Of a DNA stretch of 64,000 bases, positions 1,132 to 45,360 are shown one piece after another. Both the position numbers and the translations under genes were made by a program. How positions within the stretch are numbered: position 1 is the first letter of the stretch; each line of letters starts with the position of its first letter. The stretch is taken from positions 64,170,001 to 64,234,000 of the forward strand of contig OZ320315.1 in the NCBI GenBank assembly GCA_976226885.1, read 5' to 3'. The notes below the pieces were generated by a model. It had not been told where the DNA came from. It worked only from the letters and a program-made list of their open reading frames with translations, and did not search any database. The stretch comes from Iphione sp. A-MEVVRFRX5. Taxonomy: Eukaryota.

Positions 1132-2420
1132 TTTCACACATACATGATAGAAAATGAAAATGTCTACATGTACAAATACCTGGGAGTGCAAATTGATAGT
1201 TGTTTATCATATGAAAAACAGACGGACCTAGTGCTATCCAAAGTGGGATGTAAACTACACTACTTCAGGAAAATCAGAAGAATCCTTCGGATAAGAGATA
1301 GAATACTACTCCTAAAAACAACAATCCTGCCTATCCTGGAATATGGACTAATCCTATTTACTGAGAACCGCTCAGTTAACTATCAACGACAAGCTCGCAT
1401 GTACAATCGACTAATCAGAGCAGTGTTCTTTGAAGGATTCGGATCGACTGAATCCAGACGAAGATGTGGCTGCGTCACACTAGCCGAAAGAAGAGACTAC
1501 ATCATACTGACATTAATGTGGTACAGACACATAATGGGCAACACGACACGTACTGTGCACAGGAGGACCAGAGCAGATGGAAAGCCATTGTTCAGAGTCA
1601 GCCGGCCAAACTTTGAGGCATACCGTAGAAGCATCAAGTACAAAGGAGGCCATCTCTGGAACACACTACCACATAACATGATGGACCTGGACTCCTCCAG
1701 TTTCAAGAAGGTGGTAAAGAGCATAGTATAATGAGTCGTAAGCAATCCACACTAGGAGTAGACTGTACTTCTAATGAATATGCTCTAACATAGGCAATGG
1801 AGAACTGGGGTAAGCCAAAATACTTCTGAATCCAAAATTAAATCTGCGCAACTGATACTTGGGCACATGTCTAGTATCGGTCCTGCAGAATGTCGTAGCT
1901 TGATAAAGAGTGACTCCAGACACCGACGTAAACTTGAGACCTGACAACAACCTAATGTTACTTGGCATTCGAGCTTCTGTCTAATGTCAACCCCAGAAGT
2001 ACTACCTAGTGATTCTTACTCTAATCACAAAAGGACCCAGCCAGACAGGCATACCGAAGACATGGTCTACGTAGGAAATAATCTCATTTGTCACCTGAAC
2101 TTCCGTCTATTGTAAACGCAATACAATTCACATGCAGTCACTACAAGGACCATCGATTCTAATATATAAAGAAGTAACTCCATGCTGTAAAAACATATGA
2201 CATCTGGGCTGCTGTCTAATGTCAAATGGCTAATGTCCAAATTGTAAATACTCAAGTAATGTACGATCCATCCCTGTAATTACCAATATTCACAACCACA
2301 ACACATCCAAAACTGTACATTCCAATGAAAATTACTAAGACGACAAAGACCTGAGAAGCAACGTACGATCTGTATATCTCTATCAGGATAAATAAAGAAA
2401 ATGAAAAAAAAAAAAAAAAA
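1132..2420 (+). mobile_element. 5'-truncated CR1/L2-type non-LTR retrotransposon (ORF2 C-terminus, long 3'UTR, poly-A tail)
   Basis: ORF2-type C-terminal coding region, then ~690 bp 3'UTR, AATAAA at 2391-2396 and an A17 tail at 2404-2420. An in-frame stop at 1129-1131 marks the approximate truncation point. No TSD found. Confidence 0.85.
1144..1731 (+). pseudogene. LINE ORF2 C-terminal fragment (RT thumb and downstream region), open to its stop
   Basis: YKYLGVQIDSCLSY, KTTILPILEYG and SIKYKGGHLWNTLP are typical CR1/L2 ORF2 C-terminal motifs; the catalytic RT core is missing. Confidence 0.8.
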
Positions 2421-3117: not shown

Positions 3118-3214
3118 CTAGACGGAAAAAAAGAACCAGGGAGGTATTTTTCTCAACCAATAAAGCCTATATTGGCTAGCCTTACAGACGATAATAGACA
3201 GTAAGAATGAGTAG

Positions 3215-3722
3215 TGTAGCGTTTCGGTGTTTGGTACGAACAAAATGCGCATTGAGAGTGTTTCCTCTGAAAGGGTTGTCGGAGGATAATCCTCCGAGAT
3301 AGCCACCGGTGGCGTGGGGTGGGAAGAACATTCTAGAAACTCCCCCTGTGAAGGGAGTACGTGTGTACTGAGCACAGCTCAGAAGGTTCTAGAAAGGATC
3401 TCTCTGGAAGGATCCAAGGTAGTATAGGCTATGGAAGGTTCCAGAAGGGAACTCTCCAGAAGGATCCTATAGAGAAAGGTAGTATGTGCTGTAGAAGGTT
3501 CTAGAAGCACCCCTCCAGAAGGATCTCTGGGGGAGGGTGTTACTATTTTTAAGGATGTACCATGGCTAAATTTAGAGCCAGACTCTGTATATAAGGGCAC
3601 TGATTTCCTGAATAAAGACAGTTCTCATCCGGACTTGGAAGTGAGAGCAACAACGCATATTCTGTGTGGAAGTTCTTTATTTCGCGGTGGCCATCCGGCC
3701 TGACGACGACCGACACGTTACA
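3215..3722 (+). repeat. 5' LTR (508 bp)
   Basis: tgtagcgttt...cacgttaca; by eye identical to 10078-10585; TATATAAG at 3588-3595 and AATAAA at 3611-3616. Confidence 0.95.
3325..3507 (+). promoter_or_regulatory. Array of four perfect heat-shock elements (nGAAnnTTCnnGAAn) in the LTR U3 region
   Basis: aGAAcaTTCtaGAAa 3325-3339; aGAAggTTCtaGAAa 3381-3395; gGAAggTTCcaGAAg 3433-3447; aGAAggTTCtaGAAg 3493-3507. Copies in the 3' LTR at 10188, 10244, 10296 and 10356. Confidence 0.85.
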
Positions 3723-3724
3723 TT

Positions 3725-3742
3725 TGGTGGCAGCGGTGGGAT
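3725..3742 (+). other. Primer-binding site complementary to the 3' end of tRNA-Leu
   Basis: TGGTGGCAGCGGTGGGAT begins 2 nt after the LTR end. It is the reverse complement of ATCCCACCGCTGCCA-CCA, the 3' end of metazoan tRNA-Leu isoacceptors (recalled, not searched). Confidence 0.85.
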
Positions 3743-3774: not shown

Positions 3775-5322
3775 ATGGACACGAACACGGCGTCTCCAGA
3801 GAAGGATGGCTACGGTTCATCGGTATCAGACCAGAAGAGTTTGCGGCCTATACGAGAAGGAGGAAACGGTCTCCAGCGAAGACGGTGCGGCCCGGTCAGT
3901 GATTATTTATCGGCAACGCAGCGACAAGGGTCGGAATACGAAGATTCCGACATGATGAATGCGACGGACGAAATCGCCGACGAATCCACGAAGGATCAGG
4001 AGGAAGGTAATTCGCCTAATGGAGGGGAAGCGAGTGTTGCCGGAGGACGTGGTCCGGTATCGGTGGCGGTCTGTTCCTGCTCCGAGGGAGAGGAACAGGA
4101 GACGAATCAGTCACCAGGAGGAGGATCAGTTCGCGCATTCTCTCGGCAGTGGCAACCCCGAAGATTCCTTGAAATAACCTCAGGTGGTTGTGAGGAAAGC
4201 GGGAACCGACCAGGCCCCGGTGAAGATAGTGGATCCAATGACGCGACTTTGCCGACAGAGTCATGCAGTCGGCGACGGGTCGACCAGGAGGTGGAGCGGA
4301 CAGCGGGTCAGGAGGAACCGACCTCCGAATGGGACGGGTTACTGGAGGAATTCGGCACATTCCTCCGAGCACAGGAGAAACAGGGAAGGTGGGTACCCAA
4401 ATCAAGGCAGGTACCATCGACGCCCCAGAAGCCTACCGAATTTCCGAAGTGGTTTCCTCCGACAGAAGTGAAATCATCTTCTCGTTTGAAGTTGATCAAG
4501 CCAGAGCGATATGATGGGACGAACGACTGGGAAGATTGGCACTCCCGATTTGAAGAATGGGCAAAAGTAAGTGCGTGGGACGAAGAAACTAAGAAGAACA
4601 TGTTGGTATTGTCTTTAACGGGGGCTGCACGAGTATTTTACAGCGATTTAACCTCTGCAGAGACTTGTACGTATCAGCGGCGTGTTAATGCCCTGTTTCA
4701 TCGATTCGGAAAAGGCAGGAGGGAAATTCGGGCAGTTCAGAAGTTGACTACTCTTCGGAGAACTGGGAACCAAACTCCTAGGCAGCTAGCGAATGAGGTG
4801 TGTCAGCTGGTATACCAAGCGTACCCCGATGTGAGCAGGGAAACGCGAGATTTTCTCTCGGTGGACTTCTTCCAGAAAGCTCTGGACGATAAGATGAAGT
4901 TGAGGTGTGTTTGCGCAAAGATAGGAACTCTGGAAGAAGCGATACAAGTGGTAGAGAGGGAGGAACGGTATGCCAGTAGGGGAAAAACTCCGACAAAAGG
5001 GGATGACGCAGACCAACTTGAGGCGGTAAGAAGAAAGTGCGAGGAGAAACTGGCTTGGAGGGATGCTGGACTCTATCGGAGGGAAGCACCAGCAAGAGAG
5101 AGGTTGTTTCCGAAAAACATTAAGAAAGGAAGAAATGAGTGGGGAAGAATCGTGTGCTGGCATTGCAGATCGGAGGATCATTTCAAGAGAAACTGCCCAC
5201 ACCTGCGGCCGAATGTCAAGCCAGCTGTAACTTTGGTAGAACTTCCGGGAAACGGGGAAGCGCCACCGCCTCCAGCTGCCAAGGGGGGACGGTGGCAGGT
5301 TCAAGTCTGTGTCTCCCTGTAA
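3775..5322 (+). CDS. gag: Gag, intact, 515 aa from the first ATG after the PBS
   Basis: Retrotransposon capsid-like block KPERYDGTNDWEDWHSRFEEWAKVSAWDEETKKNMLVLSLTGAARVFY and CCHC knuckle CWHCRSEDHFKRNC. The track's start at 3664 is a GTG inside the LTR. Confidence 0.9.
   Translation: MDTNTASPEKDGYGSSVSDQKSLRPIREGGNGLQRRRCGPVSDYLSATQRQGSEYEDSDMMNATDEIADESTKDQEEGNSPNGGEASVAGGRGPVSVAVCSCSEGEEQETNQSPGGGSVRAFSRQWQPRRFLEITSGGCEESGNRPGPGEDSGSNDATLPTESCSRRRVDQEVERTAGQEEPTSEWDGLLEEFGTFLRAQEKQGRWVPKSRQVPSTPQKPTEFPKWFPPTEVKSSSRLKLIKPERYDGTNDWEDWHSRFEEWAKVSAWDEETKKNMLVLSLTGAARVFYSDLTSAETCTYQRRVNALFHRFGKGRREIRAVQKLTTLRRTGNQTPRQLANEVCQLVYQAYPDVSRETRDFLSVDFFQKALDDKMKLRCVCAKIGTLEEAIQVVEREERYASRGKTPTKGDDADQLEAVRRKCEEKLAWRDAGLYRREAPARERLFPKNIKKGRNEWGRIVCWHCRSEDHFKRNCPHLRPNVKPAVTLVELPGNGEAPPPPAAKGGRWQVQVCVSL
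5247..5296 (+). other. -1 programmed ribosomal frameshift signal at the gag/pol junction
   Basis: Slippery heptamer G GGA AAC (5247-5253) in the correct gag phase, an 8-nt spacer, then a hairpin GCCACCG(5262-5268)...CGGTGGC(5290-5296) extended by cctcc/ggggg pairing. The -1 frame (ORF 5139..5528) carries the protease remnant. Confidence 0.75.
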
Positions 5323-7034
5323 AAATTGCTGATCGGAAGATGGATCACTTGATCGATACGAGGACTGAAGCAGCTGTTTCAAAGGAAGAATTCGCTCCAA
5401 GTGATATCGGTCGAACGCAGCTTCCCGGCGCCACAGAACAGGTAGCTCCAACTTTGGGTCGGGGAATCATGACATTTGAAGCAAATGGGTACAAGTACGA
5501 GATGCCAATAGTTTTGCTAAACATGTGAGTAAAGGAAGATCATCGGAAATTGAAAGGAACCACCAGGGGAAATGTCTATGCATTGGGCAGAAAATATTCC
5601 GAAAAACAGTTTTTTTCGAGAAACTCAAGAAATGCGGTGAGAGGAGGGTCGACGTAGGAAGAATGCCTCATGAGCATGGCTAACATGCTGCAGTTTGAGA
5701 AGATTCCTTGAAGAAGAGTTCGGAGAGTGGTACAACACCTGCGCGATGCCGGGCTGAAATCCAAAACCGAAGAGATGTGACCTCTTCCTGAAGCATTTCG
5801 ATCCCTTAGGGTACCTTGTAACAAGAGGGGGACATAGGAAGAAACACTGAGAAGATTCAAATTATTGAACATGTACCTGACTTTGGTTGTGTGTTTCCTC
5901 GAAGGGTGACACAATGGGAGAAGAATCATTGGGATAGCAGAAGACACTTGAAGAAGACACTGGTGTGAGCCTCGGAACGATGACGATGCTTCCGGCGGTC
6001 GGAGAAATCTGTGATTTGCCGAGTTTTGTTCCGAAGAAAGAAAACTTTGATGACGGTTATAGGAAGCTTCCGCCCCGGAAGGGGTGATGGAAGGCGGATG
6101 GCACTCTTTGCACGTCGGAGCTGCAGCGGCGAACGCGGATGACAGCAGTAGTCGTTCGTGAATAAGTTCGGAAAACCTGCAGAAGAGTAGAAGACAGAGT
6201 ATGGCCAAGGAGTGCGACACCGGAAAAATCCTGCAAATTGCCCTGGTTTGACTCTACGATCCCCAGTACCAACGGGTGAAAAGGGGCAAGCTAAGTTTTC
6301 TTTGGAAGAAGATCCTCCGTCTTGTGTGAACTAGATCAAGGCAGGCATGTAATGTAACATCATGGAGCCACCTTGACGATCAAAAGTATTGCTCCGTTGG
6401 GAGGAATAGCTGAAAGGGGGTCTTTGCGGTTAAGAAGCCAGATGAACACTGCAAGTGATTTGTCAAGTTGTCTCTGAGGGGAAAAATTCCGAAAGCAATG
6501 ACAAGACGAAGTTATCAGATTAATCCTCCAGTCATGTGGGTAGCAGAGTGAGTGATTTAATTTATCATGGGATTAAAACGGTTACCTGAAGATTTGAAGT
6601 TTGTAAGTGGGACACTACATCAAGTCCTGCATGGATTTGGGAAGAGAAATTCTCAGCTACAGGAGATTTTGTCACATGAAGATTATGTGATCAGCGCTAT
6701 ACGATCAGCAAGAACTTTGGAAATGAGCAATTCCAAACAAGTGGTCTTGGATGACTATGGTAAACTGCAAACACCAGCAACTGCAGAAAAGGGAATTGAG
6801 TTGTCTACACCTGTAAGAGGTGACATGCGAATAAGCACGGGAAAAAGGATGGTTGTGCACAAAAACAAAGTCCACCCGTATTCTGGTGGGCGGTTGCCAA
6901 AATGGGTAAGGGAGGCCATGCAAATCCAGACAAGTCTGATCAACTTTGGTGGGCCTCGTAACGGTGACGACTTACCTTATGGCAGGAGGAGTTATTGGTC
7001 GGGTTCATCCTCCGACGACGATAGCTCTGTATAG
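5253..7034 (+). pseudogene. pol: Collapsed pol: protease remnant, RT thumb remnant, possible RNase H trace, integrase C-terminal remnant
   Basis: LIDTR in place of LIDTG (5355-5363); HLRDAGLKS/PKRCDLFLKHFDPLGYLVT (~5735-5825, frameshifted); DDAS (~5980). No YxDD and no integrase DDE core seen. Many stops and frameshifts; only ~1.8 kb long. Confidence 0.8.
6567..7034 (+). pseudogene. Open 155-aa segment resembling the post-catalytic C-terminal part of Gypsy integrase
   Basis: GLKRLPEDLKF resembles the FGRxxRLPxDL motif; RISTGKRMVVHKNKVHPYSGGRLPKW resembles the ..VVHxNRLKPY..P.W end of Gypsy integrases. Confidence 0.6.
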
Positions 7035-8220
7035 CACACTAAGGAGGCGGCTTCCGAGGGAGGAGGGGTGGGTGGCGTTCTAGTCACCGTCGGTTCAGAG
7101 AGAATGCCCACTTCTTCTCCGAAGCCGGCCATACGGACCAATCGGATGTATTGATCCAGGCCTCCTTGGTGCGTCTGTGCTTACACATGCTCAGAGCTGT
7201 TAGCAAAGAGCAGGGGAGTTATGTCCTCCTCTACATGAACTGCATCGGTAAAATTTCCCAGAACAGCTGCTGGGAAAGCCGTAGAGGTGAAGATGTTGGA
7301 GGTAGAGGAAGAAATACAGGTGATAGAATAAATTTCCATTGTCAAACGGGAGTTTTGGGACCAGCAAGAGTCAATGTAGCTGACAACTGAACCACGGCGA
7401 AAGGAAGGATGATAAGTGTACCATCGACGTTCAGTTGAACACGGGAGCGTGGATGTGGCCAGGCCTGCAGGGCTGGCGCAGTTTCTGTTTCCCCTTCATC
7501 ATCATCCTCGGTAGAGAAGAGCCGGGGGGCACAGGGCGTGAATCGGAGGAATAAGGCAGACATGGACTGTCAGCTGGAAGTTTTGATTCACGCCAGTAGA
7601 TGTCTCAGGGTGTGGTAGATTGACTTGCTGCACCGAGTTCGGGCTCGATTCTCCGACGAACGACACGAGAACGAAGCATTCTCGATAGCGAGGCCAGGGG
7701 GTGAGAGTAGGAAGAAAGAACGATCTAGGAGGACGTTCTGGTGGGAAGGGTGAAGAAGTTGCCAACGCACGTATGCGAAGGGCGACTCCAGCATCCACAA
7801 ATGCTAGCTCAGCATTTCTCGGGGTAAGAGATGTATCGCGAGGGTTACACCAGAGTAACACACCACATTTCCTGTCTGGCAGAAGGTGCCAAGGAAACAT
7901 CGCAGAGGCAGGTGAGCAGTAGCCCTGAAAATGAGAACAAGAAAGGAGCATGTAAAAAGGGGCACAGTCATCGGGAAAAAATGGGGAGGAGCAAAAATCT
8001 AAAGATCGGAGGCAAGAGAAATGACAGAGAATTCACATTTATCGGAGAAGAAAGAAACATTATGGGAAAAGTGGAATCGGAAACGGGAAGGAAGATCAAA
8101 GGTTGTCGGTGTTCGATCCTACCCCTGGGGAGGGATAGGGTAGACAGAAGGGAATTGTAGGAATAGCAAAGTAATCCTCCGAGATGAGAGGGCGGGAAGT
8201 TTTGAACTGCCCACCACCGG

Positions 8221-9738
8221 ATGACGCAATCCCGAGATGCACTGTACCGGAACGTAATTTCTGCCGCTACGTCTTCGGAGGAGATCAAGATGGGGATGCA
8301 TTGTAAGCAATGCCCGAAGTTGACTTTCAAGAATAAATATAATTACGAACGGCATCTGCGAGAGAAACACGGAGAGCAAATGGGAGGAGGAAAGGTACGC
8401 TGGATGGCTTGTCCGTGGTGCAAGGGAAAAGCGTACGCATGTGACTATACCGGGTGGGAGAGCCACCTTATCAGCCAACACCCCGAGGCGGCAGATGAGT
8501 TCGTAGGACAGGGTGACTTGTATTTCATCTTTGCGGTCAACCCTGCCAACTGGAAGGTCCCTGCCCTCACTTCTGCTCCAGAAATTTCCCGGATAAAGGC
8601 GACGGGGTTGATTAAGCAGTGGAGAGAACGTGAAGGGAGAGCTATCCCTTTACGCGAAGCACGCCAGCGCCGAGCATCGCAACAGTCAACAAGCCAGGAG
8701 CCACAGCCGGGCCCCTCCGAAGAACCCCCTCGGAAAGTTCAGAAAAAGCAAGCCTCGGAAGAAGTCATCGATGTACAGCAGAGGAAACCAGCAGCTCCGG
8801 GAAGTCGGGAGGCAGCGTTAGCGCTAGATGTGTCGGATGTTAGTCCTTCCTATGACACGCCTTCGGTGGGACGCACCGCCGAACAATGGATGGCTGAGCA
8901 CGAGACAAGTGGTGACTCCCATGTTGGGAGTGGTGCTGGAGGAAACGTTTCTTTAATCAAAACGTTCCACGTAGACAGCCCCATCGATGCAGCTTCCGAT
9001 GACACCGTTCTGGAAGAGCACCCGCGTGGAGCAAGTCCAGCTCCTGCCAAGCCACCTAGAGATACGACGAGGGAAGAGGATACCGCCCCTACTAGTCTGG
9101 CGCATCAACAGAGTCAAACGGTTTTATCGGCATTTAATATCGCCGATGCAGAGATACAGACGTCGGAGGGGGAGGCGGATCAGCAACTACCAGGTGAAGA
9201 ACTGGAGGAAACCGACCAATTCCATGACTGGTTACGTGCGATAGCAGATGGGCTGGTACGCCCGTTTTGTGGTGTCGCCAGAAGGGCTCCAACGAAGACA
9301 AGCTGTACTCTCCTTAGTCTGGAGTGGCCACCAAAGAACTGGCGACAGTTTAGCCCGGAGCAGAAATTCCTGGTGTCACTCTCGGCAGCCACCACAGTGG
9401 CTATGAGTCAAGGAACTCTCAGGCCAGGAGATCCTATTCAGCCGTTGAGGGATCGACCCTATCTCATACTTCCAGGGTCACGACGGCCGAAATCCCGAGC
9501 TGGTTGGGGCTTGCCTGATGATGGGTCTCAGACGGAGCTGAGCAGGCATAATGCGACGATCCAACAGATAGTCACGCTACGGGAGCAGAACGAACATGAT
9601 CCGATAACGCCGGCAGAGTTGGAAGCTCTAAACAAGTCCGCGGAGGAGGCACGGGCCGAACAGGAAGATACTATTTTGGCCCATCTCCGAGAAACGTCGA
9701 AGCGACGCAGCGTGTTCTTGTCTCCGGAGGACGTTTAG
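8221..9738 (+). CDS. Accessory ORF3 of the LTR element, 505 aa, with two N-terminal C2H2-like zinc fingers, a long disordered middle and an unassigned C-terminal domain
   Basis: CKQC-x13-H-x4-H (8302-8370) and CPWC-x14-H-x4-H (8410-8481); basic NLS-like PPRKVQKK; uninterrupted 1518-nt ORF between pol and the PPT; no obvious env-like signal peptide or TM segment. Confidence 0.85.
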   Translation: MTQSRDALYRNVISAATSSEEIKMGMHCKQCPKLTFKNKYNYERHLREKHGEQMGGGKVRWMACPWCKGKAYACDYTGWESHLISQHPEAADEFVGQGDLYFIFAVNPANWKVPALTSAPEISRIKATGLIKQWREREGRAIPLREARQRRASQQSTSQEPQPGPSEEPPRKVQKKQASEEVIDVQQRKPAAPGSREAALALDVSDVSPSYDTPSVGRTAEQWMAEHETSGDSHVGSGAGGNVSLIKTFHVDSPIDAASDDTVLEEHPRGASPAPAKPPRDTTREEDTAPTSLAHQQSQTVLSAFNIADAEIQTSEGEADQQLPGEELEETDQFHDWLRAIADGLVRPFCGVARRAPTKTSCTLLSLEWPPKNWRQFSPEQKFLVSLSAATTVAMSQGTLRPGDPIQPLRDRPYLILPGSRRPKSRAGWGLPDDGSQTELSRHNATIQQIVTLREQNEHDPITPAELEALNKSAEEARAEQEDTILAHLRETSKRRSVFLSPEDV

Positions 9739-21840: not shown

Positions 21841-21962
21841 GATTAGGGACGGCGTAGAGGGAAAGGTGTGGTAGTTTAATTTGCTCTGGCCTCGGGTTGG
21901 GACCAGCCCGAGGCCAGAGCAAATTAAGCTACCACACCTTTCACGATACAAAGTCCTTAATC
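21841..21962. repeat. Foldback inverted repeat (40-bp arms, 2-nt loop, plus 10-bp outer arms)
   Basis: 21861-21900 pairs with 21903-21942 (38 Watson-Crick pairs and 2 T-G); 21841-21850 pairs with 21953-21962 (9 WC and 1 G-T). Confidence 0.9.
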
Positions 21963-22534
21963 CCTGTTCTGATATGGTTTTGAATGGAACTTACCTTCTG
22001 TACGGTTTACATTCTCCATAATTCATCTCCTTTGAAGTGTTTCTACTCCTACGAGGCATGTTTACAATTGCCTCCATTGTGGATTAATGCAGTTTTCTAG
22101 GTCATGAGCATGTGTGAAAATATATAGGTTGGGACGGATTTTTCCTTAGGGATTGGTTCCCGGTTAAAAGACTCTTTCGGACATTGTAAGTATATGAGTT
22201 TCATTCTCAACCATATTAGAACCAAAGACTAGTAACAGCGCACAGTCTAGTTTACTAGATGGGGCGTGGGAGGTGCTGCTTTGGTCTGTTTTAATTGATC
22301 TTTCGGGGAGATTTTTGGAAGGAGTCCCAATTTGTCGATCAGTACAATCTACCATCACTTTCTTGAGTTGGTCACAGGGGATGACTTGATAAACTTGTAA
22401 CAATTCTCTAGATATTGCCGGCCTTACATCAACATTTAATGACGTGTGACGATCATAATACTAATATGGTTACATGTGAGCAATAGTGTCACTCAAATGT
22501 TGTCTGTACAGATTGATTATGCAAGGAATCATGG

Positions 22535-23089: not shown

Positions 23090-23245
23090 TTTGACCAAAT
23101 TTGGCTGATTGTTGTCAATTTTTGGATGAATTTGGCTGGTTTTTGCCATTTTTGGATGAATTTGGCTGGTTTTTGGTGAATTTTGGATGAATTTGGCTGA
23201 GTTTTGCTGATTTTCGGATGTGGCTGAGTTTTGCCATTTTTTTGA
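23090..23245. repeat. ~30-bp minisatellite, about 5 copies
   Basis: atttttggatgaatttggctggtttttgcc and variants. Confidence 0.85.
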
Positions 23246-25465: not shown

Positions 25466-26309
25466 GACAGTGATTAGACTAGGAATCAGTCACATATTAC
25501 AAGGTTAAAGATGAACATTTGTTAGATGTTTCACTTTGTTTTAAAAAATACTTTCATAAATTTGTTAATGTGGGGGAGACCCCCCAAACCACCTTTTTCC
25601 TTCCAATATTTTCATGAATTAAATGCATCTTTAGCATGACTTCCAGAAGTTTTTGTCACTTTTCGAGAAATTCAGAGCATCTTAAGCTGAACTTTTCATG
25701 AATTAAACACACCTTTAGTGCTACCTCTGGTAATACTTGCCACTTTTTCATGAATTAAATGCATCATTAGCATAGCCTCCTGAAATATTCCTTTTTTTCA
25801 CTATTATAAGTGTGGTGGGAGACCCCCCAATACCCCATTTTGAACCTTTTTTCATGAGAACGACCTTGGCTCTCACCTGGGTGGACCCAATCTTCTTGAC
25901 TGGGTCAGCACATCACTCAGTTGTAAGGGTGGGGTTGTTTAAATCAGATAAAATCCTCATGCACAACATTACACACCTAATAATATCCCCGCTCACTCTG
26001 CGAAGCTCGCACATTATAGTGTGTAATGTTGTGCACTTGGACTTTATCTAATACATAATTAATGCTCAAAGTTTGTTTGTTGCTGTTTTTCTTTATGAAG
26101 GTAGCACTTATAAGCTGCTTCAGTCTGTATAATTATTGTATTATCCTCCCAAACTTGTGAAGTGAGTCATCAAGGAACTGCCATCCTGTTTTTTGTAAAA
26201 TCAATGATGCGTTGACTTATAAATCTCTACCCGGGAATGATCCAAGATTCAATACCACTTGAAAACAATCATTTCTAGGGGACAATTCCCGATTATCATG
26301 AAAACTTAA

Positions 26310-27360
26310 TATTCATAGATTTTCGTAAAGCATTTGATATGGTAAATCACTCAATATTATTGAGAAAATCATCTGATAATTTTAAATTCCAAAACATGGC
26401 AGTGAAGCTTGTAAAAAATTATTTGGAACATAGACAGAACTACACGTATGTCAATGAGTTGAGTATGGGTAATATTGTAGTGGGAGTTCCTCAGGGATCT
26501 ACGCTGGGGCCACTCCTATTCTCACTATTCTTAAATTATTTGCCAGAGAAAATATCAAGTAAAGTGACTTTGTTTGCAGACGAAATATTGGTGTTGGTTC
26601 AAGCAAGATCACTTGGAGAATTGAATCAAAAGACCCATGTAATATGTAAAGAAATTGAAGAATGGTGCAGAAGAAACAAACTGTTATCAAATCCTAAAAA
26701 AGTAAAATTATGACAATCTGGCCTGGAAGAAAAAAAAAGGAATTGAAAATAGGGAAACTATGAAGATGTCAGGGGGAAGTTATATCCTATACTGACATGT
26801 ATAGATATCTGGGGATTATAATTGATTCCACGCTCAAATTTGATGATGAACTACACAAAGTTATAGGCGTAATGAACAAAAAAAACTGTATCTCATCAAT
26901 AAGATTTAATTGAACTTAAGACCTCAGGATTCTTTACTTCTATATTAATGTTGCAATAGTCCACATCTGGACTATTCACTAGTATCCCTCACATGTAATA
27001 ATCAAAACACTTTCTCTCAACTGCAAAAAATACAGAATAGGGTTTTATTTGTTATATAGAAAAAAATACGAGAAAATGAGTATCAATAGAAGACTGGATT
27101 TACTGACTATTATGCTACCAGTACTGTATAAAATGATTACGCTAAAATTGCTACCTTTAGTAGAAAACTCTGTATTATACTATGAAGACGACAAATGTTT
27201 GAAATTGGTAACCCTGAAGTCCGAATTAGTGAAGAATTCTTTTATTTTTGATAGATATAAGGTCTGGAACAAACTGGATATATTGTATAACAACTTTGAA
27301 AGCTACAAAGATTTACTTCAATATTATAAAGTTATGTCCATGCAATATCATATTTATTGA
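26310..27360 (+). pseudogene. Degraded CR1/L2-type LINE RT fragment
   Basis: DFRKAFDMVNHSILL, GVPQGSTLGPLLFSLFLN, LFADE (mutated YADD) and YRYLGIIIDS, with frameshifts. Confidence 0.85.
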
Positions 27361-32665: not shown

Positions 32666-32764
32666 GTCTAGTCACATTACCCTCCTAAAGGCTGGCAATC
32701 CTATCCATTGGGCCACAGGGGCTATACATAGTTTAGGCTATACTTCTGTCACCTCCTGACCAGT

Positions 32765-33180
32765 CCTCACACCTCATTAGGTACTGGCCCTGGCATTGGC
32801 TGTCCTCCTGTCGCTCATATAAGTTCCCACACCTCGTCTGGTGTTATCCCCACCCTTCCCCATCCTCCTGTTGCTAACAGAAGTCTCCACACCTGGTCTG
32901 GTGTAATCCTCACCCTTCCTGTCCTCCTGTCGCTCTCAGAAGTCTCCACACCTCGTTATGTGGTATCCCCACCCTTCCCCGTCCTCCTGTTGCTCATACA
33001 AGTTCCCACACCTCGTCTGGTGGTATCCCCACCCGTCTCCATCCTCCTGTCGCTCATACAAGTTCCCACACCTCGTCTGGTGGTATCCCCACCCGTCCCC
33101 ATCCTCCTTTCGCTCTCAGAAGTCTCCACACCTCATCAGGTGTGTCCCTGGTATTTGGCCGTCCTCCTGTTGCACTCATA
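32765..33180. repeat. ~60-bp minisatellite, 7 copies
   Basis: ccacacctcgtctggtggtatccccacccgtctccatcctcctgtcgctcatacaagttc and variants. Confidence 0.9.
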
Positions 33181-33182
33181 GC

Positions 33183-33380
33183 TGTAAAATGGTTGCAAAC
33201 ATTCTAACCAAAGAAAAATGTTCTTAAAATGTTGTAAAACAGTTGCAAACATTGTTACCAAATAAAAACTTTCTTAAAACGCTGTAAAATGGTTACAAAT
33301 GTTGTAGCCAAATAAAAACATTCTTAAAATGTTGTAAAATGGTTGCAAACGTTGTAACCAAATAAAACATTCTTAAAATG
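33183..33380. repeat. ~51-bp tandem repeat, about 4 copies
   Basis: gtaaaatggttgcaaacgttgtaaccaaataaaaacattcttaaaatgtt and variants. Confidence 0.85.
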
Positions 33381-33723
33381 AGTTCATCAAGTACAGTACA
33401 GTGCATAAACCTTGGCAGCACTGCCAACCCTGTGGCCCAAGAGGCACCCTCCTATACTAAAAGGTTGATGGCACCGCCAACAATCCCTACTTACCAGCTA
33501 TAAATAGCACATTTGTCCTACTTACAGGTTATAAATAGCACACCCAGAGTTCATCAAGTACACCACAGTGCATAAGCCTTGGTGGTGCCACCAATCCTTC
33601 AGCTCATTACCCCTCTGCCTAGTTGGCAGCACTGCCAACGCCAGGCGCTCGTGAACGTGAAACATCAGTGGTGTCGCCACTACACCGCCCACAGTGATTT
33701 TAATTTCATATATTTCATTACAG

Positions 33724-37829: not shown

Positions 37830-38150
37830 ATGACAGAAGCAGAGATGGACACAGAGCCAGGATCAGCTCCAGGCCCAGCTGCAGGACGTGCTGAGGAAGG
37901 CCCTGCACAAGGTAGGGACTGAGGCAGGGACTGAGGCAGAGGCAGAGGTAGAGGCAGGGGCAGAGGCAGAGCCAGGGCCAGAGACAGAGGCAGAGGCAGA
38001 GGCAGAGTTAGGGGCCATGGGCATACACTTCAGAGGAGGAGGAGGGGGAAGAGGAAGAGATGTTCAGACAAATGGAGAGCTCCACCTCAGACCAGGACTC
38101 TGACTCTGAACCAGAGCCACAGCCACAGCCACAACCTAAGCATGCTAAAG
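37830..38150. repeat. Low-complexity (GAGGCA)n/(AGCCAC)n tract after the Sola relic
   Basis: Repeated gaggcagaggca and agccacagccac hexamers. Confidence 0.7.
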
Positions 38151-42166: not shown

Positions 42167-42540
42167 CCCAGCAAACACATGGCATTTTCACAATGTTTTA
42201 TGAAGAAATGTTATGAAATTACATTTTTATTATGTTTTAATTCTGTTTTCAAAAGATCTTGAAAAGAGCTTTATAGAACATTTTCAAATAACATTTTACA
42301 ATGTTTTAATAACCTTTTCCAAAACATCTCCAAAAGAGCTAAACAAAACACTGTCCAATAACATTTTTACAATGTTTCCATGACCTTTTCCAAAACATCT
42401 CCAAAAGAGCTTAACAAAACATTTTCAAATAACATTTTTACAATGTTTTGATAAGCTTTGAAAAAACATCTCCCAAAAGTGCTAAACAAAATGTTTCAAA
42501 TAATATTTTTACAATATTTTCATAATCTTTCTAATACAAC
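42167..42540 (+). mobile_element. End of an EnSpm-like non-autonomous element with ~69-bp subterminal tandem repeats
   Basis: Starts cccagcaaacac; about 4 copies of aataacatttttacaatgttt...ttccaaaacatctccaaaagagc. No partner TIR found. Confidence 0.55.
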
Positions 42541-44479: not shown

Positions 44480-45360
44480 ATTCGGCCAACACAGGAGAAG
44501 TATACACCCTGGAGGTCCTCCCACCATCCAGGGGGGCATAAAATTGGACTAGGAGAGTGCTTTGCAACAGTCAGTGCAGAGCCGTCAACACATATCAGCC
44601 AGCCACCAAGCGCCACCGTGTCTGTATCACTAATGCCTAGAAGAAGGAATTATGTGAATACAACCACCCAAGCTGGTCTCAAACTGCACTCAGACAGTTA
44701 TTTCCGATCCAGTAGGGGTAAAAGATCATATGACAATTGCCCTGTACTGCAATGCAACTTGCACTGAAAAAAGGCCTTTCCTGATAGGAAAAGCAGTAAG
44801 TACCAGGTGCTTTGGGAAGAATTCTGATCCTGGAATGTATGTCCATGACAGGCATAACACCAAGACCTGGATGACTTCCTTCCCGTGGGGAGAGTTCCAC
44901 CAGATGATGGACGGCAGGACCAAGGCACAGAGTTGTCATTACATCCTCCTGTGTGATCATGCTGGCAGTCACAGATTATCCGAGAAGCTCAGCGACATCA
45001 CACTGAAATATTTGCCTTCCAATACCACTTCCCATATCCATCTTCTGGATGCTGAGATTATAGCTCATTCAAGGCCCAGTATAGGAAAAGGCTGGTCAGG
45101 CATTTTCTGGGGTGTGTGGAGGATAACAGCCCCATGACTGCTGACCTTAGGAAGGCCATCCTCATGGTGCATGGGGCTTTGCAGGCAGTCAGCTCCACTA
45201 CCATCCAGAGTAGCTGGAGGCATACTGACACCCTTCCTAGGACACCCAGACCTGTGGAGGGTGGGGAGGAGGAGGAGGAAGAGGAGGAGGAGAAGGAGGA
45301 GGAGGAGGAGAAGGGCATGCCTCTATCTGACCTGCAGACCATTCTCCAATCACAGTGATC
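44480..45360 (+). pseudogene. pogo/Tigger (Tc1/mariner, DDE_1) transposase relic
   Basis: KDHMTIALYCNATCTEKRPFLIGK..STRCF, HNTKTWMT, ILLCDHAGSH and LKYLPSNTTSHIHLLDAEII, followed by an acidic poly-Glu tail; frameshifted. Confidence 0.85.

Follow-up and report, generated by a model that had tools for sequence, protein, structure and literature searches.

A two-finger accessory gene and a candidate target motif in a Ty3/Gypsy-like retrotransposon of Iphione sp.

Accessory open reading frames are common in LTR retrotransposons, and most have no known function. The locus described here, in a 64,000-nt stretch of Iphione sp. DNA (the window), raises the question of what such a gene might do for an element whose pol region has decayed around it. 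We propose, with a probability of about 0.45, that this gene, ORF3, encodes a protein that binds DNA, marks the element carrying it and thereby keeps that element expressed or in an open state.

The element is bounded by two 508-bp LTRs with TG...CA ends (3215-3722 and 10078-10585, plus strand), identical over their full length with 0 mismatches; the 5' copy holds TATATAA at 3588 and AATAAA at 3611. A primer-binding site starting TGG (3725-3742, plus strand), which we take to be of the tRNA-Leu type, begins 2 nt after the 5' LTR, and a polypurine tract (10065-10077, plus strand) abuts the 3' LTR, completing the signature of an LTR retrotransposon. The flanks, GTAG and GTAA, match at three of four positions where a target-site duplication of 4-6 bp is expected; the duplication is thus uncertain, and the LTR identity would also be compatible with a collapse of the LTRs in the assembly. 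No tRNA gene was found in the 64-kb window, and Rfam gave only one sub-threshold chance match per LTR.

An intact gag of 515 aa with a CCHC knuckle and no stops occupies 3775-5322 (plus strand). Its Pfam matches (zf-CCHC, E=0.0011; PNMA, E=0.068) both lie under the cut-off, its PDB matches are designed helical repeats, and its likeness to a capsid protein is our presumption. A probable -1 frameshift signal spans 5247-5302 (plus strand), with GGGAAAC in the gag phase followed by a hairpin of -26.4 kcal/mol (z -2.2), a stability reached in 6 of 200 shuffles. In the pol region (about 1.8 kb, 5254-7034, plus strand), each frame of 502 codons contains 18-27 stops. Protease-, reverse transcriptase- and integrase-tail-like motifs are visible in it by eye alone, in the Gypsy order; Pfam and PDB searches with the three frames (X at stops) and with 22 stop-free pieces gave no match, and neither did a tblastn search of plasmids. 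The element is likely a member of the Ty3/Gypsy group (Metaviridae) on the motif order read by eye, a filing that is not proven because neither Pfam nor PDB recognises the pol region. The spacer that separates the pol remnant from ORF3 (7035-8220) has no recognisable gene; an antisense reading frame considered there was discarded, since 342 of 1,000 simulations contained a frame no richer in stops.

That the LTRs are identical although pol decayed long ago suggests a non-autonomous lineage, still mobile, in which gag and ORF3 are kept open; the alternative is a recent recombination with a helper. The first-pass annotation had described ORF3 as retained despite the loss of pol, and the stop counts agree: none in the 505 codons of ORF3 or the 515 of gag, versus 18-27 per frame in the pol region.

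ORF3 itself (8221-9738, plus strand) is a stop-free, intronless frame of 505 aa lying, as first described, between pol (recognised by eye alone) and the polypurine tract. Its openness is not a product of chance: the internal region, simulated 1,000 times under a Markov model, gave no stop-free run as long (maximum 338 codons). Met24 (nt 8290) has a stronger Kozak context than Met1, and the N-termini of the homologues described below lie near the first Cys; the true start may therefore be Met24, giving a protein of 482 aa. The two C2H2-like fingers have the spacings originally claimed, C28-x2-C-x13-H-x4-H50 (8302-8370, plus strand) and C64-x2-C-x14-H-x4-H87, the second continuing into an extension to about residue 136 (8410-8628, plus strand) in which F102, P108 and W134 are invariant in the homologue alignment. 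The ligands of finger 1 are conserved wherever the homologues are complete. Both fingers fit the classical C2H2 pattern (C-x2-C-x12..14-H-x3..5-H, beta-beta-alpha), with strand-strand-helix predicted for each at pLDDT of about 57-74, though they score under the Pfam cut-offs (zf-C2H2_4, E=0.037, 15.2 bits versus 27). The 13 residues between them (6 in the homologues) are not a usual tandem linker. Kruppel-type arrays have at least three fingers joined by TGEKP-type linkers; this family has two, joined by 13 or 6 residues.

A low-complexity linker follows (8629-9222, plus strand). It contains the NLS-like PPRKVQKK at residues 169-176 (8725-8748, plus strand), and the Ser/Pro/acid-rich middle noted earlier is evident in the composition of residues 154-323 (170 aa: 20 Ser, 16 Pro, 29 Asp/Glu, 13 Lys/Arg). 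The C-terminal domain (9223-9489, plus strand) has the form P-x-C-x2-A-x-R ... WPP ... L-x-L-x-G and leads into a helical tail. That this block is folded, as had been thought likely, is an expectation drawn from its sequence conservation, which stands; the structure models, being of low confidence, add nothing to it.

Is ORF3 a one-off, or a member of a family? Queried with the whole protein, a word search scored none of 8,000 candidates. HMMER, a method proposed in the first-pass annotation, was run in full against 1.84 billion representatives and gave three matches, of which P0003 alone aligns both blocks in order; P0002, a repeat protein matched within residues 10-35, and P0004, a many-finger protein matched through its fingers alone, were set aside as homologues. 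Searches from the C-terminal part returned 3 of 687 candidates (query counted) and then 5 of 8,000. The homologues are five unnamed proteins of 402-502 aa with no precomputed Pfam domain, and no named host protein appears beyond generic fingers. All five share the finger pair, extension, low-complexity linker and WPP domain, and P0003 and P0006 begin with a truncated finger 1; this common two-block layout supports the earlier claim of an accessory-type protein. Identity to ORF3 is 22-28% in the N-terminal block, 13-18% in the linker and 28-33% in the C-terminal block (20-22% overall). A profile of the five homologues, built with ORF3 left out, gives ORF3 32.3 bits versus at most 6.8 in 1,000 local shuffles and ranks it above all others of the 2,184 segments from a six-frame translation of the window (E=5.9e-9). 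On the strength of these five proteins and this score, ORF3 is, as judged from its sequence, a member of a conserved protein family for which there is no Pfam model.

A basic NLS-like motif occurs in all six members. A pol-fused form was absent from the five homologues (candidates 306-2,000 aa), which is weak evidence. Two scans of GTDB gave 123 and 12 pattern matches with none confirmed, as expected for a eukaryotic element, and the ESM Atlas offered unnamed clusters only (0.89-0.92, low recognition scores), to be taken as leads. Similar hypothetical proteins in bivalve annotations may be a further lead.

Searched against the PDB, the six-member profile gave 71 rows at E<=10, the best 60 nearly all over the finger region and led by the DNA-binding C2H2 pairs of CTCF (E=1.4e-4), MIZ-1 and SALL4. 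Models of the whole protein are of low confidence (mean pLDDT 40.6 alone and 42.8 with six sequences; below 50 over residues 134-369). With such a model Foldseek had no match at E<=0.001 in either PDB or BFVD, and the best VIA-align score (Z 6.3) covers only the helical tail. The C-terminal alignment drew two weak rows from PDB profiles (E about 0.05), and a homodimer prediction for residues 330-505, run without an alignment, scored 0.00 and speaks neither for nor against a dimer.

If ORF3 binds DNA, what might it bind? The most over-represented 8-mer of the element is TCCTCCGA, with nine copies when one LTR is counted (five plus, four minus) against 0.4-1.6 expected; no 8-mer outside low-complexity sequence reached nine under any of three Markov orders, each simulated 400 times. 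The window holds 12 matches, 11 in the element and one in the flanks. The excess appears both in coding sequence (CCTCCGA in gag and ORF3, 8 versus 1.27 expected; 0 of 2,000 synonymous shuffles) and in non-coding sequence (TCCTCCGA, 5 versus 0.26 expected; 0 of 1,000 shuffles). The core TCCGA occurs 47 times in the element, 23 on the plus and 24 on the minus strand, and is preceded by a pyrimidine in 44 cases; such strand symmetry fits recognition of DNA rather than RNA. The wider form of the word is YYTCCGA, and TCCTCCGA contains a CpG. YYTCCGA is found 34 times in 6,863 bp of element and 7 times in 56,630 bp of flank, a contrast inflated by the lower GC and the CpG depletion of the flanks (o/e 0.53 versus 0.64-0.98). 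Its density is 3.5-6.7 per kb in all six regions of the element, with eight sites in the spacer. Seven flanking control tiles reached -log10P of 5.7 for 8-mers and 6.7 for 7-mers, versus 7.8 and 8.4 for the element; when copies within 150 bp are merged the motif counts six, a value that some 8-mer also attains in 3 of 14 overlapping tiles. The motif excess, found post hoc and in one element, is well supported.

Two placements of the motif bear on regulation. In U3 an inverted pair, TCGGAGGA-TAA-TCCTCCGA, lies at 3279-3297 and is repeated at 10142-10160; it is weak on its own, with an inverted arm of at least 8 in 26 of 500 shuffled LTRs. The 14-mer TAATCCTCCGAGAT, shared with U3 (3287-3300), recurs at 8172-8185 (plus strand), 36 bp before the first ATG of ORF3, and a further motif copy lies at 8275-8282 on the minus strand. 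A 14-bp match between LTR and interior arose anywhere in the interior in 12 of 300 shuffles and within the 300 bp upstream in 2 of 1,000, that region having been chosen afterwards. Another exact 14-mer repeat exists in the element (4160/5699), and local alignment gave the region upstream of ORF3 no special prominence. These data hint weakly at an internal promoter for ORF3. The LTR also contains four canonical heat-shock elements (HSEs), GAAnnTTCnnGAA, at 3326, 3382, 3434 and 3494 (3326-3506, plus strand; repeated at 10189-10369). All eight matches in the window fall in the LTRs, four in each (0.91 expected; 0 of 100 shuffles), and three of the four per LTR lie in a local duplication.

Taken together, the observations can be arranged into a model in which ORF3 would be a selected accessory gene of a Ty3/Gypsy-like family, encoding a putatively nuclear, sequence-specific DNA-binding protein. 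Its finger pair and extension would bind YYTCCGA, whose strongest form is TCCTCCGA, on its own element, at sites on both strands, paired in U3 and adjoining the ORF3 start, and host machinery drawn in by the C-terminal domain would hold the element in an open, transcribed state, through anti-silencing, transactivation or both. The HSEs could supply a first pulse of expression and ORF3 the feedback, and a non-autonomous copy such as this one would keep gag and ORF3 and borrow Pol. We infer the link between protein and motif from their co-occurrence in one element. Transactivation and anti-silencing had both been offered as functions in the first-pass annotation, and they receive indirect support, as does DNA binding, from the symmetric motif and the C2H2 pairs in the PDB; for integration targeting, its third option, we found nothing in favour. 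Against binding, the motif could also belong to a host factor, and ORF3 is without the Arg(-1) and Asp(+3) that finger 2 carries in all five homologues, as in the aligned CTCF finger, reading D,T,G,S instead. The finger recognition code predicts roughly xxC-GAx for ORF3, which is present in the enriched word; we give this no weight because such agreement would arise by chance in an estimated 1 in 5 cases. The fuller proposal, that an animal-type LTR lineage combines its own zinc finger with a seeded CpG word in a heat-triggered circuit of self-recognition, anti-silencing or auto-activating, kept even by Pol-less copies, is tentative, and we lean against it.

ORF3 may instead act on RNA, binding unspliced element transcripts in the nucleus and aiding their export, splicing control or stability in the manner of Rev or CERV, with the DNA motif a separate matter. 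Finger 1 of the homologues is spaced H-x5-H, and P0008, the one homologue of five to pass a Pfam gathering cut-off, does so there on zf-met (24.8 bits, cut-off 21.2), with a weak match to zf-C2H2_jaz, a dsRNA-binding model (E=0.0047). The homologues' linkers are of mixed Arg/Glu charge, a composition linked to RNA-processing proteins. A spliced ORF3 message is plausible, a crude scan finding candidate acceptors at 7098-7882, and a Gypsy precedent exists in CERV of Cer1 (PMC10309623). ORF3 itself, however, has H-x4-H in finger 1 and an acidic, Ser/Pro-rich linker, the PDB matches are led by DNA-binding pairs with the U1-type Prp11 finger only at E=0.17, and the symmetry of the motif would be left unexplained. 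We consider an RNA role unlikely.

Alternatively, the word may be bound by a host factor, or merely reflect how the family's sequences are composed, with ORF3 serving as a chromatin or protein adaptor, for example a tether for the integration complex or a block to a restriction factor. Pairs of C2H2 fingers with extensions often bind proteins, the LTR already has HSEs that recruit host factors, a second word, GTTTCCTC, is enriched in the element (seven copies), and six YYTCCGA sites persist in the decayed pol region. The rarity of the motif in the 56.6 kb of flank speaks against this reading, as does the lack of a named host factor, and a role in integration targeting would more naturally travel with the integrase, which is lost here. 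This explanation, too, seems to us improbable, if worth keeping in view.

Could ORF3 be a passenger, a captured piece of a host gene or a recently recombined helper segment under no selection in this lineage? A single copy allows no dN/dS, identical LTRs are compatible with a recent mosaic origin, and the homologues' genomic context is not placed in any element, so that the family's apparent tie to retrotransposons is known from the one element here. On the other side stand the lack of an intron, the full two-block layout and conserved ligands across five proteins at only 20-22% overall identity, the absence of a named host protein or of a Pfam match beyond generic fingers, and a motif density within ORF3 (4.6 per kb) like that of the rest of the element; a segment recombined from a helper would, moreover, still make ORF3 a functional gene of its family. 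We think a passenger origin quite improbable. An env-like or fusogenic protein, suggested by the position between pol and the 3' LTR alone, can hardly be considered, given zinc fingers, NLS-like motifs and, in agreement with the first-pass annotation, no signal peptide, membrane segment or C-terminal anchor in any of six proteins by a simple hydropathy scan rather than SignalP or TMHMM (maximum 19-residue means 0.43-1.35; Kyte-Doolittle 0.93 in ORF3, whose N-terminus is not hydrophobic), and no fusogen among the leading fold-search matches listed for the low-confidence model.

With DNA binding as the preferred reading, an unnamed family now has a candidate target (YYTCCGA) and a candidate trigger (the four HSEs). 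If the link to the motif is true, C2H2 fingers, normally an instrument of host defence, would here serve a retrotransposon for its own protection or activation; this would account for a Pol-less copy keeping a 1.5-kb extra gene and would provide a small sequence-specific anti-silencing module. Were the whole circuit true, it would mirror the silencing of transposons by host zinc fingers and be an independent animal counterpart of plant VANC. If the link is false, what remains is a new, conserved family of accessory proteins, found in an element that looks heat-inducible.

Each part of this arrangement has parallels. The LTRs of ONSEN and of Macrostomum Ty3/Mdg4 elements carry one to four canonical HSEs each, with heat induction shown, and the passages of PMC12801592 on these elements mention no extra open reading frame; here there are four per LTR, likewise canonical and upstream of the TATA box, and a heat response is predicted. 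CERV of the C. elegans Gypsy element Cer1 is a nuclear accessory protein of about 500 aa that has a candidate zinc site and lacks homologues among known families (PMC10309623). As described there, its 5' end is shared with gag by splicing, and it has a Cys-only loop, H/M/G domains and a role in RNA export; ORF3 is, in the sequence, a separate sense frame after pol with two C2H2-like fingers that use His ligands, though its message may be spliced as well. The TRP28-encoding frames of plant Retand and Grande elements are conserved, non-env and predicted to bind DNA, lie between pol and the 3' LTR, and also occur in some non-autonomous elements (PMC11963269); a nuclear accessory gene of Grande is cited in PMC11963269 and PMC8220671. 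By that account they are antisense, confined to flowering plants and matched by PF04195, whereas ORF3 is sense and has no PF04195 match. Animal Gypsy accessory frames of non-env origin are represented by the ORF3s of bdelloid LTR elements (PMC5408684) and by MDG1 sORF1/sORF2 (PMC11952523), which are reported as esterases, exonucleases, coiled-coil or transmembrane proteins and small FAST-like or helix-turn-helix proteins; 'zinc' and 'finger' have 0 occurrences in the available text of PMC5408684. By title and opening of abstract, no paper among open-licence PMC articles and bioRxiv preprints describes a C2H2 frame after pol in a Gypsy element, and supplements of mollusc, annelid and Macrostomum surveys, subscription papers or Repbase could record one. 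The non-env accessory frame is already known as a kind, and what is new in the ORF3 element is the enriched CpG word.

The closest functional likenesses are to Tas and VANC. The foamy-virus protein Tas (Bel-1) is encoded just before the 3' LTR, has an N-terminal DNA-binding and a C-terminal effector part, and has related sites both in the LTR and close to where its own gene starts (PMC4929722); ORF3 resembles it in position, in two-part layout and in the motif found in the LTR and beside its own start, where the shared 14-mer (12 of 300 shuffles as long) would be a weakly indicated counterpart of a Tas-type internal promoter. Tas differs in coming from env-bearing vertebrate retroviruses, the text available in PMC4929722 makes no mention of zinc, and ORF3, compared through a low-confidence model, has no Tas match in Pfam or among the BFVD rows listed. 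VANC of Arabidopsis VANDAL transposons is an accessory protein, made up of conserved domains and a variable region, that has been shown to bind an 8-9 bp motif of its own element, with sequence-specific anti-silencing proposed (PMC5735166). Both are element-encoded and accompanied by a short motif over-represented in the element itself, whereas here the carrier is an LTR retrotransposon rather than a VANDAL, the putative binding module is a C2H2 pair with no DUF1985 or DUF287 match, binding is only predicted, and the motif is not arranged as for VANC but dispersed, coding DNA included, at its 3.5-6.7 per kb in all six regions. If our model is right, ORF3 would work like VANC or Tas while being a member of neither and unrelated to both by descent as far as sequence can tell: the spread of the motif through the body of the element suggests VANC-like protection of chromatin, and the motif pair in U3 suggests Tas-like activation of the promoter.

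Each of the two identical LTRs of the element carries four perfect heat-shock elements, located between 3326 and 3506 in one copy and between 10189 and 10369 in the other, and on the basis of these sequences we predict that transcription of the element is heat-inducible. A local duplication of 52-60 bp is a partial source of these sites. The U3 part of the LTR also contains a perfect 12-bp palindrome, GCCACCGGTGGC (3302-3313), which directly follows an inverted pair of the main motif, the most over-represented 8-mer of the element.

At the gag-pol junction, the probable -1 frameshift signal (5247-5302) looks intact, although the downstream frame reaches a stop at 5528. The end of the pol region holds an open stretch of 157 codons (6561-7034) whose terminus was judged by eye to be integrase-tail-like; searching this stretch against Pfam returned no meaningful match. 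A minus-strand frame poor in stops in the spacer (6995-8040) was considered and rejected as not significant (342 of 1,000 simulations).

The bases adjoining the LTRs, GTAG (3211-3214) and GTAA (10586-10589), differ at one position although the LTRs themselves are identical; the mismatch may stem from a base change after insertion, from copies having recombined with one another, or from the assembly. Elsewhere in the window are LINE-type reverse-transcriptase fragments at 13965-14603 (minus strand; RVT_1, E=1.2e-9), 26279-26713 (plus; RVT_1, E=1.2e-19) and 1144-1731 (plus; by eye, resembling a LINE tail), and a DDE_1 transposase fragment at 44658-45137 (plus; E=6.7e-12). The flanks also contain minisatellite arrays (23098-23214, 32762-33600, 37898-38015 and 42224-42530), two inverted repeats (one with arms at 10936-11028 and 17340-17432, the other at 21838-21965), and a short, degenerate TTAGGG-like run (688-720).

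A second enriched word, GTTTCCTC, occurs seven times in the element (3260, 3867, 4452, 5893, 8788, 8946 and 9212) versus twice in the rest of the window. At 4452 it overlaps the main motif, and GTTTCCTC may be viewed either as a variant of that motif or as a second site.
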